The translations under genes and the position numbers were made by a program. Shown one piece after another: positions 1 through 35,562 of a stretch of DNA of 64,000 nucleotides. Numbering within the stretch: the stretch's first letter is position 1; the number at the start of each line of letters is the position of its first letter. This stretch comes from Escherichia phage vB_EcoM_G4507: the sequence record NC_054919.1; one strand, written 5' to 3'. The notes beneath the pieces were generated by a model. The model did not search any database. It was not told the DNA's origin and was given only the letters and a program-made list of their open reading frames with translations.

Positions 1-2178
1 TTAGGCCGCAAGGGCCTTCATAGTTTTAGCGATTTGGGAAACTTCATCATCACTTAAAGAACTGCGATATCCGATGAAGTCGGAAACAATACGGAATTTC
101 TTGGTAAACTCAGCAACCATTTTATCACTGTTTTTTGAAGCATTATTTGATAATACATCAAAAAGATTAGTTACTGTCCAGATGTCATGACCGATGGTAT
201 CTTTTCCACCATTGAAATATACGCCCCGTAATGAACTAACTATATTAGCGAGTCGTGTATATTCTTCAGAAACTTCATCTGTACTGAAGTACTTCATCAT
301 AAAATCTAGTTCAGGATACTTGATAATTTTATCAATATATCGTTGAGCTGAACTTGAATAACCTACGTACTTATCATAATCTACATCATCAAAAGCATCT
401 ACATATAAATCACGCAGAGTTTCAAAAATACATTGGCACTGACCGAGTTCTTTTACCTTTTTCTGTAAAAGCGGACGAATAACATAAAATTCATTAATGC
501 CAATAAGATTAGCCATACGAATCAAAATATTCATAGATGGATGACAAAGAGATGTAGTACCATCCATAGAGAAAATATCAGAACGATGCATATACGCTAC
601 ATACCCAGTAATTTCATCTGCTTCTGATGTGAGCGTAAATAATTCCTCTTTTTCCCAGCGCCCGTCTTTAATTTCAAACTTAAATGCTGTAGCAGCTTTA
701 GGACGAGGAGCTTTACTTTTAACTACCTTTGGAATATAGCTTTTAACTAAAGCTTCAATTTCTGACAAATAATGAATGTTAACTTCATCACTTTCAAACA
801 TCGCCATAATATCAGGGAGTAAATCAATCTGCGATTCTACTTCTGGATTAATAAACAGAAGACGCTCATTGTGATGAATATTCAAAGTGTTATTAAATTC
901 ACTATCATCTAACGCATGTGCTAATCCACGAACAATATTAACACGATTTTTAATATCATCAATAACGATATTAATTTTTGTTGTATTAATACCAAACAGA
1001 CGATAACTTGATGCAACGGCTGAAGTTTCATGACTTTGCTTAATGCGCTTCAGTCGAGGGTCAAGATTTACTTCATACACAACTCCTGCATTGCATAACT
1101 TACTGTCAGGTTCAAACATGCTCTGCATCTTTTTATATGACAGATTTTTAGTCGTGAATTTGACTGAATTACTAATCATATAATCTCGAGCAGAATACCC
1201 CATCTTCATCAATTCACGATATGTGTGACGAGGAGATGTAGATTCTTTAAATCGTTTTACATCTTCATTAAATGCTTTCTCACTGAGTTCTTTAACTCGT
1301 TCAATAATATTTTTACGAGTACGATCATCCAGCGAAAGAGCCTCGCGTGATGGAGCAATATCAAGTGAACCCATTGGAAACTTAATGTAATTCACTTCAT
1401 TGCGAATGCTTAGCCAGTTACGGTCTCTAATAACACCATCGATAGGATAAACAATACCGCCATAGATAGCATATAATCCACCACGATCAGGCCAGTATCT
1501 TTCTGGATTTACGCCATAATAATCATCGAAATCCGGAAAATAATCAATTTCGCGGTCAAGACCATTAATGATAGCCAAATCTTTGAACGGTCGCATGATA
1601 TAAGAAACTTCATAAGCAAAGTTTCTAAAGTCTTTTTCTTCAACTGGAACTACGATTTCAATACCAGTTTTATCATCTGGACCCATTTCTTTTACGAATG
1701 TAGGTTTAATCTGTGGACCATCACCATCCATGTAAGCTACATAACCACGAATTTCACCTTTATGGTATGAAGTAATACTAAATGTATCAGTATAACTAAA
1801 CGGAGATTTAGAACCTAAACCAAATCCGCCAATGAAATCGTTAGATTCGGCTTTAGATGAACTGAAGTATGAATTATACAGACCAGGAGAATTATCATCA
1901 CCCTGAATATCAAAATCACTCATACCCGGACCAAAATCTCGACAAACAAATCGTGGATCTAATCGTCCTGGAACTTGAATGATAAATTTTTCAGGATTTC
2001 CATTGAGAGCATGAGCATCAATCATGTTAGTAATCAATTCACGAACTACTGCGCGAATCTTGTTTGTATACAAATCAGATGACAGAATTTTAAATACTTT
2101 AGGAGATGCTGTGATGCTAAATGCTTTTGATTTAGAACCATTACCAAGAATTGTTTCTTTTTCAGTGGTGATAATCAT
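1..2178 (-). CDS. rIIA: rIIA protein
   Basis: 725-aa ORF; N-terminus [12 protein letters not shown] and length match T4 rIIA as recalled; stop codon at window positions 1-3. Confidence 0.93.
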
Positions 2179-15477: not shown

Positions 15478-15687
15478 TTAAATTACATGATTATTTATAA
15501 TAAATTCTCGCGGAACGTTAAAATATCCGATTTTAGTTAATATAACAACATCACCGTTAATAATTACCGGAGAATAATCTTCTGGAGCATTAAATTTCCA
15601 ATGGGCTCTAATATTATATCCATCAGAACCAAATGCTCGAGTAGCCGGTCTCCCGGCTTTTTGCCACGCGTAGAAATCAAATTTCAT
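15478..15687 (-). CDS. hypothetical protein
   Basis: 69-aa ORF in the soc-56 interval (T4 segF slot as recalled; no endonuclease here). Confidence 0.5.
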   Translation of the reverse strand: MKFDFYAWQKAGRPATRAFGSDGYNIRAHWKFNAPEDYSPVIINGDVVILTKIGYFNVPREFIINNHVI

Positions 15688-15884
15688 TTTGAATGCTCTA
15701 TAATTAATTTTAAGGCTTCTTCGCTGACAAAAATTTCGTCAGGACCTTCTTCTATAACCCAATCAACCATACGAAGTTGATTAGTTAAGAGCTCACATAC
15801 GAGCTCCTTGTTATAATCTTTAAATAGCTGGTCAATACGTTTCTTATGGGCTTTCTTAAGCTGACGCTTATTTAAACGAGCCAT
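15684..15884 (-). CDS. hypothetical protein
   Basis: 66-aa ORF, overlaps flanking genes by 1-4 nt. Confidence 0.5.
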   Translation of the reverse strand: MARLNKRQLKKAHKKRIDQLFKDYNKELVCELLTNQLRMVDWVIEEGPDEIFVSEEALKLIIEHSK

Positions 15885-16402
15885 TAATAACCTCGGTCTT
15901 GACGAGCGAAGTTTTCAGCATTTTTCAGGTAATAAAGTTTAAAGATTTCTTCAGCTGACATTCCAAGAGCAATAAATTTATTCATGAAAAAGTGAAATTG
16001 GTCAATCAGTTCAAATTTAATTTCAAGCTGATCTTCGGGAGATAAATCTTGAATTTTCTTGGATTGCATTTCAGAATAACGTTTCTTCCAAGGTTTCCAT
16101 ACAGCAGAAGCTTCTTTTTCACCATTACTCATACCACCAAGAGAAGTATATAGTTCGCGAGTTTCATCTGCGATATAATCGTCTTGGTTTCGCAACCAAG
16201 CAAGAACTTCTCCTGCGGTTTCAAGTGAATCAGGATGACGATTTGTTTCTGGTTTATCATTAGCCAAACGAATCTGTAAATGCCGCTGCATATCAAGCAT
16301 AACCTGCAGTGGGTCAATATTGTGCATAATATTCTCAGCATATGCACGATTTGCTTTATCAACACCTTCGATCAAATGAGCACATTCATTAAAGTAAGCC
16401 AT
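15884..16402 (-). CDS. 56: dCTP pyrophosphatase (dCTPase/dUTPase)
   Basis: Track ORF extended upstream; ATG at MAYFNECAHLIEGVDKA preceded by AAAGGA RBS gives ~172 aa, matching T4 gp56. Confidence 0.88.
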   Translation of the reverse strand: MAYFNECAHLIEGVDKANRAYAENIMHNIDPLQVMLDMQRHLQIRLANDKPETNRHPDSLETAGEVLAWLRNQDDYIADETRELYTSLGGMSNGEKEASAVWKPWKKRYSEMQSKKIQDLSPEDQLEIKFELIDQFHFFMNKFIALGMSAEEIFKLYYLKNAENFARQDRGY

Positions 16403-16473
16403 TATTTTTCCTTTCAATTCATGGGTTAGTAGATTAATTATACAATAAATATATAAAGCAATAAGGAGGACAT

Positions 16474-16674
16474 ATGGTACAAAAATTAATGGCACTTGTT
16501 AATGCCATAAAAGGTAATAAAAAACGTATAGCTTTTACTATTTCTGCTATTGTAGGAATTTTACTCTGGAACTTTATTCTATCACCTGTTGCAATTGCGC
16601 ATGGTATTAATATTCCAGTAGTTACTCTTGATACATTTGTAGATTTAGCATTTGCTTTAGTTGGGTTGATTTAA
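16474..16674 (+). CDS. small hydrophobic membrane protein (two predicted TM segments)
   Basis: 66-aa plus-strand ORF with TAAGGAGG RBS 4-5 nt before ATG; sits in 268-nt gap between 56 and 61. Confidence 0.5.
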   Translation: MVQKLMALVNAIKGNKKRIAFTISAIVGILLWNFILSPVAIAHGINIPVVTLDTFVDLAFALVGLI

Positions 16675-17699
16675 ATCTTAGCATATTTAGATAGCCGCAT
16701 TTTAGCCATCAACCCCTGGGCAATATTATTTTTCATATATTCCATAATTTGTTCAGGGGTTGCACCTTCCTTTCTAATCATATCATTGACATCTTTTGAT
16801 TTCCAGGGAGATTTATCCCAAAACATAACCCTTTCTCCTGCATCAACTAATTTAGTCATTCGTTTGATAGTGTCAGGGTGACGAGGTTCATTATCTAAAA
16901 CCCACACTCGTCTATCTTTAAATGGAACAACTTCTAGGTCTAATTGACCACCTGTAATAGCTATACCATTTTCAATAAAAAGTGAATCTATAGGTCCTTC
17001 TAGAACATATACATCACCATCTTTAACTCGTTCAACACCGTAAATTTTTGTTGCCTCAGGATAAGCTTTAATGGTGATATATTTTTGAGGAGCATCTTTC
17101 TTTAATGCACGTCCTTGAAAAGACTCAGCTTTTCCATTAGCATTATAAATTGGAATAACAAGACGAGGCTCAGAAATTTCCTTTTTGTATGTTCCCGGTG
17201 CTATGCTATTAACTAATTTAGGCCATTCGGTTGTAAACCAAAGATATTTCCATTTATCCTTTGGAATACAACGAGCTTTTACATATTTTATAATTGGATG
17301 GTCTTCCGCCAGTTTATCTAATCTAACACATGACGGAAGAGATTTAATTATTTTCTTCTCAGGTTGCTTAGGAAGTTCTTTAGGTTTTTCTACTGGACGA
17401 CTTTTACCTTTTTCTTTTCTTATTTCAAAGATATACTCACGATATAAATCAGGTTCAAACTCCTTTAAATATATTCCGATTGGTGCATGATAATTACAGT
17501 TATAACAATGAATATTTCCTTCATTATTATCACCATAATACCATCCACGAGCTTTATTCTGGTCGGTTTTTGAATCTCCACAAACAGGACATCTAAACCG
17601 CAATTTAAAAGTTGAACTATTATTTACTTGTGTGAATTTAGGTAAATGAGCCAATGCACGATACGCAAACTCATTATCAATCCAAGGTATTGATGACAT
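16671..17699 (-). CDS. 61: DNA primase
   Basis: 342 aa; zinc-ribbon CPVCGDS...CYNC and TOPRIM-like core; matches T4 gp61. Confidence 0.93.
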   Translation of the reverse strand: MSSIPWIDNEFAYRALAHLPKFTQVNNSSTFKLRFRCPVCGDSKTDQNKARGWYYGDNNEGNIHCYNCNYHAPIGIYLKEFEPDLYREYIFEIRKEKGKSRPVEKPKELPKQPEKKIIKSLPSCVRLDKLAEDHPIIKYVKARCIPKDKWKYLWFTTEWPKLVNSIAPGTYKKEISEPRLVIPIYNANGKAESFQGRALKKDAPQKYITIKAYPEATKIYGVERVKDGDVYVLEGPIDSLFIENGIAITGGQLDLEVVPFKDRRVWVLDNEPRHPDTIKRMTKLVDAGERVMFWDKSPWKSKDVNDMIRKEGATPEQIMEYMKNNIAQGLMAKMRLSKYAKI

Positions 17700-17701
17700 T
17701 T

Positions 17702-17866
17702 TTACTCTTCTTTTTCTTTAGATTCCTCTTTTTTCTTTTTAGGAATCTGTTCAGGACCTTTATTTACTACAGCACCTGATGTTGTTCCAGTAGAGATATT
17801 TTCAGGATTACCACCTGAATCTCCAGCGACCATATCTTCTTTAATAAATTCTTTATATGTTTTCAT
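17702..17866 (-). CDS. small protein with capsid-targeting-sequence-like N-terminus (MKTYKEFIKE)
   Basis: 54-aa ORF found by hand; GAGG RBS; TAAtATG junction with upstream gene. Confidence 0.45.
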   Translation of the reverse strand: MKTYKEFIKEDMVAGDSGGNPENISTGTTSGAVVNKGPEQIPKKKKEESKEKEE

Positions 17867-17914: not shown

Positions 17915-18224
17915 GCGCAGTAATATTTTCTGCATCATTTAGCAAATCATTAATTTCATCAGATAGCATAACACATGTACCTTTATTTCCTGTAATTGTT
18001 ACTGCACAATTACGAACGTTTTCTTTATCAAATTTTAGGTTAATATTTTCGTAGTGAAAATCCTTTAATGCCGAATATATCTTTAAAATGAAATTGTCTT
18101 TTACTACAATAAACCCAACCTCACTATTAAAACGCGGTTCATGGAAACTGTAATAAACCTTTTCATCTATAAAATCGTATGAAATTTTTTCCATTTTTAA
18201 ATATGAAAATTCAGAACTATACAT
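17868..18224 (-). CDS. hypothetical protein (61.1-like)
   Basis: 118 aa; C-terminus SIDDQIFNAFMNRG shared with next gene. Confidence 0.6.
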   Translation of the reverse strand: MYSSEFSYLKMEKISYDFIDEKVYYSFHEPRFNSEVGFIVVKDNFILKIYSALKDFHYENINLKFDKENVRNCAVTITGNKGTCVMLSDEINDLLNDAENITAPSIDDQIFNAFMNRG

Positions 18225-34798: not shown

Positions 34799-35399
34799 GG
34801 TGTCTTTTCCATCCTAATTTAGCTGCTTTTGAAACCAGTTCTTTAATTTTTCCTTTTGTCCATTCAGGACCAGGAGGTTCATGACATAACATTTGCTTAA
34901 CTCCGTTATTATACCATTTTTTACCTTTATTATGTGATGAAGCTTTAAATTTATTTGACCTTCCTTTTACATAACCTTCTGGAATATAAGGCAAAAAGGC
35001 AGATTTTCCTGTTAATGGATCATGTGAATGTATATTTCCTTTACAATTATGAGAACCATATAATGGATGATTTTGTCCTTTATTATCTCTTCCAAACGAA
35101 CCTTTTGGAGCAGCATATGACATATTAAAGAATAATGGATTTTTAACTGCATCATGCAATCGTTGATAATATAACTCGCATTTAATAGCTTCTTCACGCG
35201 TATCAAATTCAGCTAAAATGCATGAATCAAATAAGTGAGGATTATCTGAAAGCTCTTTATTATAAATTTTCTTATACTTTTTAGATAAAACTGAACCATG
35301 ATATCCAGCTAAATGCCTATCTAAAGACGTAGATCCAATATAAAAAGGAGGAAGTTTATCTCCACTATATATTGTTAAATAAGTTATATATTTTTTCAT
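34776..35399 (-). CDS. GIY-YIG homing-endonuclease-like protein
   Basis: 207 aa; YITYL...FYIGST...R...GYHG...E pattern; K/G-rich C-terminal half; overlaps start of gene 47. Confidence 0.6.
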   Translation of the reverse strand: MKKYITYLTIYSGDKLPPFYIGSTSLDRHLAGYHGSVLSKKYKKIYNKELSDNPHLFDSCILAEFDTREEAIKCELYYQRLHDAVKNPLFFNMSYAAPKGSFGRDNKGQNHPLYGSHNCKGNIHSHDPLTGKSAFLPYIPEGYVKGRSNKFKASSHNKGKKWYNNGVKQMLCHEPPGPEWTKGKIKELVSKAAKLGWKRHHENTKLG

Positions 35400-35562
35400 A
35401 TATCAAGAACCGTCATTGAAATGCAAAATAAAATTATTGAAATAAATCCATCTGGAGTGCTAAAGAACCCAATCCAACATGCTCTAGTGAATAAATAAAA
35501 TGCAAGAAAAAGTATCACATATCCAAGAAATATCATTATATCAAACTCCGTATAAAGCTAAA

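Follow-up and report, generated by a model that had tools for sequence, protein, structure and literature searches.

Introduction

Holins are small phage proteins with at least one transmembrane (TM) domain, which carry a hydrophilic, highly charged C-terminal tail and whose genes lie in or near a lysis cassette together with those for endolysin and spanins. Once triggered, they open a lethal hole in the membrane through which endolysin is released. In phage T4, lysis is genetically covered by t, e, rI, rIII and the spanins, with RI and RIII acting as antiholins. Other small envelope proteins of the T-even phages, Imm and Spackle (Sp), are the products of early genes. A further small protein relevant to lysis is ORF52 of phage BSPM4, which is 64 aa long, has a single TM segment, is encoded outside the lysis cassette and tunes holin timing (PMC11657625).

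The window, by which we mean the whole stretch of 64,000 nt from Escherichia phage vB_EcoM_G4507 (NC_054919.1) that was analysed here, with positions counted from its first letter, contains a small plus-strand open reading frame (ORF) between genes 56 and 61. As set out below, this ORF corresponds almost certainly to the gene that is called dam.1 in phage T4. Set beside the systems just described, its product shares with holins the small size and the presence of a TM-competent segment, of which it has one, but it is missing the charged hydrophilic tail, and its gene is not located in or near a lysis cassette in T4-like phages. No known RI or RIII domain was detected in the product either (no Pfam match). 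With BSPM4 ORF52, it has in common that both are small one-TM proteins encoded away from the lysis cassette; no homology between the two was seen, and BSPM4 is missing among the tblastn matches listed for dam.1. Like Imm and Spackle, the dam.1 product would be a small T-even envelope protein, and the Spackle gene is found about 2 kb from dam.1 in the same early gene cluster. In contrast to dam.1, whose sole promoter signal is late-type, Imm and Sp are encoded by early genes on the other strand, and there is no sequence match between them and the dam.1 product.

Results

A small plus-strand gene between genes 56 and 61

Gene 56 (dCTPase; 15884-16402, minus strand, start MAYFNE...) and gene 61 (DNA primase; 16671-17699, minus strand) are separated by a gap of 268 nt (16403-16670), which houses a plus-strand ORF of 66 aa with an ATG start (16474-16674, stop included). 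The translation of 16474-16674 (plus strand) is MVQKLMALVNAIKGNKKRIAFTISAIVGILLWNFILSPVAIAHGINIPVVTLDTFVDLAFALVGLI. The ORF is divergent from gene 56 and convergent with gene 61, with which it overlaps tail to tail by 4 nt: the stop codon TAA of the ORF (16672-16674, plus strand) and that of gene 61 (16671-16673, minus strand) share the palindrome TTTAAA. Upstream of the ATG, a Shine-Dalgarno (SD) sequence, TAAGGAGG, is located at 16462-16469 (plus strand), followed by a 4-nt spacer (ACAT). A preliminary description of this DNA, made from the letters alone, had pointed out the 66-aa ORF in the 268-nt gap, a ribosome-binding site (RBS) 4-5 nt ahead of its ATG and a 4-nt overlap with the gene 61 stop, and all three observations hold.

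In a genome with a G+C content of 34%, the length of an ORF is by itself weak evidence of a gene. However, TAAGGAGG occurs only once in the 64-kb window when both strands are counted, and among the 95 ORFs that start with ATG on its plus strand and reach 40 aa or more, only 16474-16674 is preceded by a strong SD sequence, which together place this ORF beyond chance. Moreover, AGGAGG or AAGGAG is kept at the equivalent spot in all orthologous loci compared.

The ORF is almost certainly the ortholog of phage T4 dam.1 and a real protein-coding gene. Its product is 97% identical to Dam.1 of T4T (ADJ39749.1), which is likewise 66 aa long and from which it differs by two conservative substitutions (I26M, I45V), and 55% identical to RB69ORF029w (NP_861719.1, 65 aa). 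It also matches phrog_2024 over the full length of the profile (E=6.4e-31; residues 2-66 aligned with all 65 profile positions), a PHROG family that is labelled 'unknown function'. A region of 2 kb around the ORF (15800-17800) is 100% identical to the Tequatrovirus phages 303Ecol101PP and vB-Eco-KMB22, and the KMB22 record annotates an ORF at exactly these coordinates as a hypothetical protein. Counting these two phages, hundreds of genome records already list the ORF as encoding a hypothetical protein. In T4T (HM137666), dam.1 is annotated (Dam.1, hypothetical protein) on the strand opposite to dam and 61, which enclose it, and with the same 4-nt overlap. The RefSeq record of T4, NC_000866.4, has no feature between dam (which ends at 17625) and 61 (which starts at 17935), and this explains why the preliminary description knew of no T4 gene at this site. 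T4 does have one, and it is missing only from the RefSeq annotation. The literature searched contained no mention of dam.1 or RB69ORF029w, and nothing relevant on T4 ribosome profiling or transcription start mapping.

Conservation of position and reading frame

Using tblastn, we detected the protein in 691 phage records, in 686 of them as one uninterrupted piece. In at least six genera of the Tevenvirinae (Tequatro-, Mosig-, Gapriver-, Moon-, Jiaoda- and Dhakavirus), the gene is identically placed and oriented, and an ortholog at the same position and in the same orientation is also present in other enterobacterial T4-like phages and in metagenomic T4-like contigs. Identities to the product of the window ORF are 55% for the Mosigvirus ortholog, 49% for Gaprivervirus, 32% for Moonvirus CF1 and 30% for Jiaodavirus JD18, the lowest value for an ortholog at the syntenic site being 28%. 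In the window as well as in T4T, RB69, DK-13, CF1, JD18 and Kpn6N, the gene is found on the opposite strand, convergent with gene 61 and on the downstream side of 56/dam.

Around this constant ORF, the neighbours vary. They include dam in T4 and small ORFs in CF1, and in DK-13 a homing endonuclease separates the ORF from gene 61. Genes 56 and dam.1 of T4 are separated by dam; the phage studied here has no dam, so that gene 56 directly flanks dam.1. Its difference from T4 is the absence of dam and segF, and not a gained ORF. When 1.84 billion representative proteins were searched with a profile of the family, only 15 clusters were returned at E<=0.001, all of 45-70 aa, and those whose genomic context was looked up came mostly from T4-like phages, at the syntenic site. 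Scans of IMG/VR with the single protein added only close relatives.

The pattern of substitutions is that of a translated gene. Variable sites at codon positions 1, 2 and 3 number 11, 2 and 15 in Tequatrovirus, with a mean dN/dS of about 0.15, and 5, 0 and 11 in Mosigvirus, with dN/dS values of 0.06-0.25. Across the five genera compared, the +1 frame alone contains no stops; the five other frames have 1-9. Seven residues (W32, N33, P38, G44, P48, L52 and G64) are invariant in an alignment of seven sequences that extends to 28% identity (A1), and the same residues with the exception of L52 are invariant or nearly so in an alignment of 20 sequences (A2). The widest alignment (A3) retains W-N-[FY]-x3-P-x-A-x2-x-G-x2-L-P-P-x2-L-[DE], and across the three alignments the conserved residues are still present at about 25% identity. 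The window protein has the family motif W-N-[FY]-x3-P-x-A-x-A-[HY]-G-x3-P...L-[DE] at W32, N33, P38, G44, P48 and L52. These comparisons indicate that the ORF is frame-conserved and under purifying selection. Frame conservation in relatives had been named beforehand as a test of the gene, and the outcome is a frame that is kept, with selection acting on it. An Rfam scan of 16300-16800 matched no family and gave one chance miRNA hit only.

Predicted topology of the product

AlphaFold2, run with the 20-sequence alignment, predicts helices at residues 2-12, 16-42 and 52-63 with a mean pLDDT of 80. A single segment, residues 19-37/42, is TM-competent; on the Hessa scale, its summed dG is about 0 and its best 19-residue window (19-37) has a dG of about -0.1 kcal/mol, and on the same scale the C-terminal stretch (47-66), which contains two Asp residues, has a dG of about +6.5 in the window protein and of +5 to +11 across the family. 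The C-terminal hydrophobic stretch is not an independent transmembrane helix. Of the two hydrophobic helices initially read from the sequence, the first thus stands as a TM segment and the second, on its own, does not. The C-terminus itself (...DLAFALVGLI) is hydrophobic with a net charge of -2, and the basic cluster is N-terminal.

Flank charges are +5 on the N-terminal and -2 on the C-terminal side of the segment, and the N-flank is at least as positive as the C-flank in 20 of 20 family members, which by the positive-inside rule predicts an N-in/C-out orientation. The 66-aa product is therefore very likely, to judge from its sequence and the structural model, a single-pass inner-membrane protein with its N-terminus in the cytoplasm and its C-terminus out. 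We envision a protein whose basic amphipathic N-terminal helix (+5) would remain cytoplasmic, whose one transmembrane helix would comprise approximately residues 19-42, and whose tail of about 24 residues, made up of the conserved G-x-x-L-P-P-x-x-L-[DE] loop and a short acidic helix, would be placed in the periplasm or on the membrane surface. In membranes, the association of helices is driven by features of the following type: an Asn that adjoins a Trp halfway along the span, with a Pro and a Gly further on. The invariant mid-helix Trp-Asn pair and the Pro and Gly that follow it suggest such an association as the mode of action, either of the protein with itself or with another membrane protein. 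Taken together, frame conservation, selection and predicted topology bear out the early suggestion that the plus strand encodes a small membrane protein at this site.

A late-promoter-like box ahead of the ORF

A box that resembles T4 late promoters, AATAAATA, is located at 16444-16451 on the plus strand, 22 nt ahead of the ATG. It represents the variant of TATAAATA with an A at position -13, which is the commonest deviation among T4 late promoters (9 of 50 sites listed in the review by Geiduschek and Kassavetis; PMC2988020). In T4 late genes, which depend on gp55, gp33 and gp45, the box is placed roughly one helical turn ahead of the transcription start (-13 to -6). In 10 of 11 T4-like orthologous loci, xATAAATA is found 12-22 nt ahead of the ATG within surrounding sequence that has diverged. 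Position -13 is A, G or C in most orthologs; a perfect TATAAATA is present at one ortholog locus (L034), and Moonvirus CF1 has ATTAAATA. The xATAAATA box is absent ahead of the three homologs from phages outside the T4 group, which lack gp55.

Within the window, WATAAATA is depleted: 8 copies were found against 25.2 +/- 4.5 expected, and all of 100 shuffled sequences had at least 8. The copies on the minus strand are followed by an RBS and an ATG in 4 of 4 cases, two of them belonging to the late genes soc and e. On the plus strand, only one copy in four is followed by an SD sequence and an ATG, and this is the copy ahead of the dam.1 ORF. With soc and e, and with plus-strand late genes that are embedded in early regions of T4, dam.1 shares the layout of box, short leader, SD sequence and ATG; it differs from T4 late genes of the TATAAATA type, which have T at -13, in having an A there. 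As a side observation, the plus strand also carries an AAGGAGG at 35345 and a further AATAAATA at 35490, neither of which is followed by a gene.

Given the depletion of the word in the window, the copies that precede an SD sequence and an ATG, and the placement of the box in the orthologs, AATAAATA appears to be more than a chance AT-rich word. We consider it probable, on the strength of these motifs, that dam.1 is transcribed late by gp55-RNA polymerase from this box, in which case the transcript would start near 16457 and would have a leader of about 17 nt. Late transcripts of either polarity are known in T4, where several sites are transcribed on both strands (PMC2988020). Neither a sigma-70-like promoter nor a terminator-like site was found on the plus strand between 16200 and 17000, and since no plus-strand terminator was found, the late transcript may continue in antisense direction into the 3' end of gene 61.

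Searches for function and homologs in temperate phages

The window protein matched nothing in Pfam, NCBIfam or PADLOC. Foldseek returned no hits in the PDB, and in BFVD it returned only members of the family, among them one that is labelled 'Holin' in an unreviewed entry. A sequence profile search of the PDB gave chance matches to TM helices only, such as M4 of the nicotinic receptor (E ~0.07), and none of the 15 clusters from the 1.84 billion representatives has a known function. No protein with a Pfam domain was found by the alignment-based search at E<=10.

Weak signals from holin families were obtained with individual family members. Three diverged members out of 20 align in one common register with the C-terminal part of PF11351 (GTA_holin_3TM; positions 66-117 of the 123 in the profile), at sub-threshold scores of 13.6-15.3 bits (E=0.03-0.1) against a cutoff of 24.8; because these three members are homologous to one another, the matches amount to about one weak observation on the hydrophobic segment. 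One distant member, P0091, matches the holin family phrog_3427 (E=5e-4), and 2 of 20 members match phrog_11161, also a holin family (E ~0.01). As far as the sequences go, the apparent resemblance to holins is a lead and not a family membership. Ldr_toxin is touched by 1 of 20 family members (E=0.1), and the window protein itself matches no type I toxin family such as Hok, Ldr or TisB.

In a group of temperate phages, the homologous gene comes after the tail-tip gene at the distal end of the late operon, and a TM-coiled-coil protein, which has the RefSeq name DUF2730 in E. coli prophages, is encoded close by. In E. coli prophages that reside in yegD or beside yliH, the homolog is about 1.5-2 kb from a Phage_lysozyme gene, and the products of the neighbouring prophage genes (179/196 aa and 105/106 aa) are neither endolysin nor recognisable spanins. 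On one further contig, the homolog is directly upstream of the gene for a RelA_SpoT-domain protein. In the window, the lysozyme gene e is about 47 kb from dam.1, whose neighbours are 56 and 61.

Discussion

It is highly likely that the ORF is a dam.1 ortholog and a vertically inherited gene of the Tevenvirinae, which did not arrive by insertion and which probably encodes a late membrane protein. It is an ordinary, already annotated hypothetical gene of the T-even phages and no new kind of element. What makes it of interest is that dam.1 encodes one of the few membrane proteins which T-even phages keep at a fixed position, and that the reference annotation of T4 omits this conserved and apparently late gene, whose translation signals look strong. 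One T4 study that quantified transcripts and proteins counted nothing beyond the features of NC_000866.4. The gene is consequently invisible there, and any other work keyed to this record would overlook it as well. To include dam.1 in the reference annotation would be cheap and could help to assign a function.

What might such a protein do? A role in lysis timing or in exclusion, both of which were raised in the preliminary description, is possible. We tentatively propose, from the features of its sequence, that dam.1 may act as a modulator of a late event at the envelope, most likely of the timing or the extent of holin-mediated membrane permeabilisation. The product would then be an accessory factor and not the holin proper. 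Late-type signals, the predicted membrane location and a motif of the oligomerisation type are in line with this proposal, as are the proximity of temperate homologs to a lysis gene (Phage_lysozyme at about 1.5-2 kb in the E. coli prophages), the weak same-register matches to GTA_holin_3TM together with the one PHROG holin match at E=5e-4, and the precedent of BSPM4 ORF52 (PMC11657625). Against it stand the sub-threshold nature of all holin matches, the absence of a charged C-terminal tail of the holin type, the distance from the lysis genes in T4-like phages and a prophage context that would suit a superinfection-exclusion moron equally well. Moreover, as T4 lysis is already accounted for by its known genes, any contribution of dam.1 to it would have to be accessory. 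A more specific scenario, in which the dam.1 product would be a late, single-pass and widely conserved but unrecognised component of T-even lysis control that descends from the last helix of a 3-TM holin and, by binding to the TM region of holin T or by forming small pores of its own, helps to determine lysis timing or lysis inhibition, strikes us as unlikely; if true, it would mean that such a component has been overlooked for decades because the reference T4 annotation omits the gene. That the product is itself a true holin or pinholin, which would give the T-even phages a second protein that forms holes, with remote kinship to the last helix of 3-TM holins, is a decidedly doubtful reading. 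The 'Holin' tag that UniProt and BFVD give to one ortholog would agree with it, as would the matches to PF11351 (3 of 20 members, best E=0.03), to phrog_3427 (P0091) and to phrog_11161 (2 of 20), and the size and inferred late expression of the protein suit it. Yet all of these matches remain below gathering thresholds and the label is unreviewed, the 15 proteins returned by the profile search (45-70 aa) fall far short of the 123-position GTA_holin_3TM model, and a single TM-competent helix is accompanied neither by a charged C-terminal tail nor, in T4-like phages, by an adjoining endolysin gene. T4 t mutants do not lyse, which implies that dam.1 is insufficient as a holin.

Two further functions have to be set beside a modulation of permeabilisation. 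As an agent of superinfection exclusion, dam.1 would be an inner-membrane protein that hinders the entry of DNA from a secondary phage, in the manner of T4 Imm or HK97 gp15. The small bitopic architecture fits such a role, and in E. coli prophages the homologs are located at the very end of the late operon beside the attachment site, which is a typical location of exclusion morons. We nevertheless regard it as unlikely: imm and sp are early genes, whereas the only promoter signal of dam.1 in T4-like phages is of the late type, with no sigma-70 promoter found on the plus strand, and the protein has no Pfam match, hence none to Imm or Spackle, and no match to a defence model. Alternatively, dam.1 might serve as a membrane helper in late assembly, for instance in membrane-associated initiation of the prohead or in another process bound to the envelope. 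This reading, to which we give little credence, could draw on the apparently late expression, the membrane-embedded product and its strict conservation in T-even-type phages, and also on temperate homologs that adjoin genes matching a 'minor tail protein' PHROG; but tail-like neighbours occur with non-T4 homologs only, and no link in sequence or structure to any assembly factor was found. The remaining alternatives concern the origin and the nature of the ORF itself. A recent insertion of a moron or toxin between 56 and 61, as first suspected, might be read from the strand, which is opposite to that of all neighbours, and from the hotspot character of a region in which dam, homing endonucleases and small ORFs vary. 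This can hardly be correct, because it is precisely the ORF that forms the constant element of the region, unchanged in place and direction across six genera or more, while the flanking dam, homing endonuclease and small ORFs come and go. Relative to T4, this phage lacks dam and has not gained the ORF. Nor does the idea of a toxin find support, as no type I toxin, defence or Pfam match was obtained.

Finally, the ORF could be fortuitous, and the stretch might function as an intercistronic spacer between 61 and 56, with a terminator and a promoter, or as the template of a late antisense RNA. Minus-strand signals of this kind do exist, and a late transcript without a plus-strand terminator would run antisense into gene 61. 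We consider a purely non-protein function very improbable nonetheless, given in-frame purifying selection that leaves codon position 2 nearly invariant, a frame that is open in five genera in which the other five are closed, residues that are conserved down to about 25% identity, a strong SD sequence that is conserved as well, and the lack of an Rfam match. The signals themselves consist of a terminator-like hairpin and a middle-promoter-like site. The hairpin, ATGGCATTAACAAGTGCCAT followed by a T-run (16479-16508, minus strand), comes after gene 61 on that strand and falls within codons 2-12 of the ORF; a terminator scan found this one where 0.4 were expected, and the SA20RB record annotates the equivalent hairpin as a rho-independent terminator. 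It is retained in both Tequatrovirus sequences folded (window and T4T) and absent in other genera, and being confined to Tequatrovirus it leaves the conservation of the ORF unexplained. By its motifs, then, the stretch also appears to serve the minus-strand early and middle transcription unit. The middle-promoter-like site for gene 56, which we assign by consensus, has the sequence TTGCTTTA-N11-TATAAT (16437-16461, minus strand) and is annotated as a T4-type middle promoter in the SA20RB record, and the plus-strand late box of dam.1 is located within its spacer.

Putative transcription signals at the dam.1 locus

The late-promoter word WATAAATA, one copy of which precedes the membrane-protein gene dam.1, is about 3-fold depleted on the two strands of the whole window (8 copies observed, 25.2 expected). 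A ribosome-binding site and an ATG come after five of these copies: four on the minus strand, at 15499 (soc), 63957 (e) and, before two further genes, 57318 and 43912, and one on the plus strand, that of dam.1. No such pair follows the three plus-strand copies at 35490, 61797 and 62600.

The putative late box of dam.1 (16444-16451, plus strand) is interleaved with a middle-promoter-like site of gene 56 on the minus strand (16437-16461), and in some relatives (locus L037) the C of CATAAATA belongs to the divergent neighbour's start codon. A terminator-like minus-strand hairpin downstream of gene 61 lies at 16479-16508, inside dam.1 codons 2-12 (MALVNAI), so that this stretch serves two uses. 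The hairpin is present in both Tequatrovirus sequences folded, the window and T4T, and is not kept in other genera.

Gene content and annotation of the 56-61 region

Compared with T4T and RefSeq T4 over 15884-16674, this Tequatrovirus is missing two genes: dam, which encodes a methyltransferase and lies between 56 and 61, and segF, downstream of 56. The 56-soc interval instead holds two small ORFs (15684-15884 and 15478-15687). Gaprivervirus DK-13 (locus L006, 2872-3621) has acquired a homing endonuclease gene that separates its dam.1 ortholog from gene 61 and breaks the usual 4-nt overlap of their convergent stop codons.

T4T has dam.1 annotated in an interval that is featureless in RefSeq T4 (NC_000866.4 17626-17934; positions 2627-2935 of our locus L004). 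The RNA-seq and proteomics counts of a major T4 study were confined to NC_000866.4 features (PMC9697503), so that dam.1 is invisible there. Database labels within the family are inconsistent: the OE5505 ortholog (63 aa, with a 3-residue deletion) is a 'Holin' in UniProt, and the member from Klebsiella phage SAKp28 is labelled 'DNA packaging ATPase'. In several genomes the family ORF carries no annotation.

Other family members

A distant dam.1-family gene (67-70 aa) ends the late operon in E. coli prophages (L038, 19778-22214; L033, L039 and L040), which are integrated within yegD or adjoining yliH. The three loci with enough sequence (L033, L038 and L039) share, upstream of it, genes for a DUF2730 TM-coiled-coil protein, a T4-type lysozyme (antisense) and a GIY-YIG nuclease, together with a 57-aa ORF whose product is hydrophobic at the N-terminus and very charged in the tail. 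The prophage block with this gene occurs in about 25 of 5426 complete E. coli genomes.

Another distant member, P0091 (59 aa), is encoded on a 2.2-kb metagenomic contig (L032, 129-1383), where 17 nt separate its gene from that of a 352-aa RelA_SpoT-domain protein downstream; the pair is possibly a two-gene module. The 61-aa representative P0088 resembles Tequatrovirus Dam.1 with many replacements of hydrophobic residues by V, F or I, and probably reflects low assembly quality, not genuine variation.
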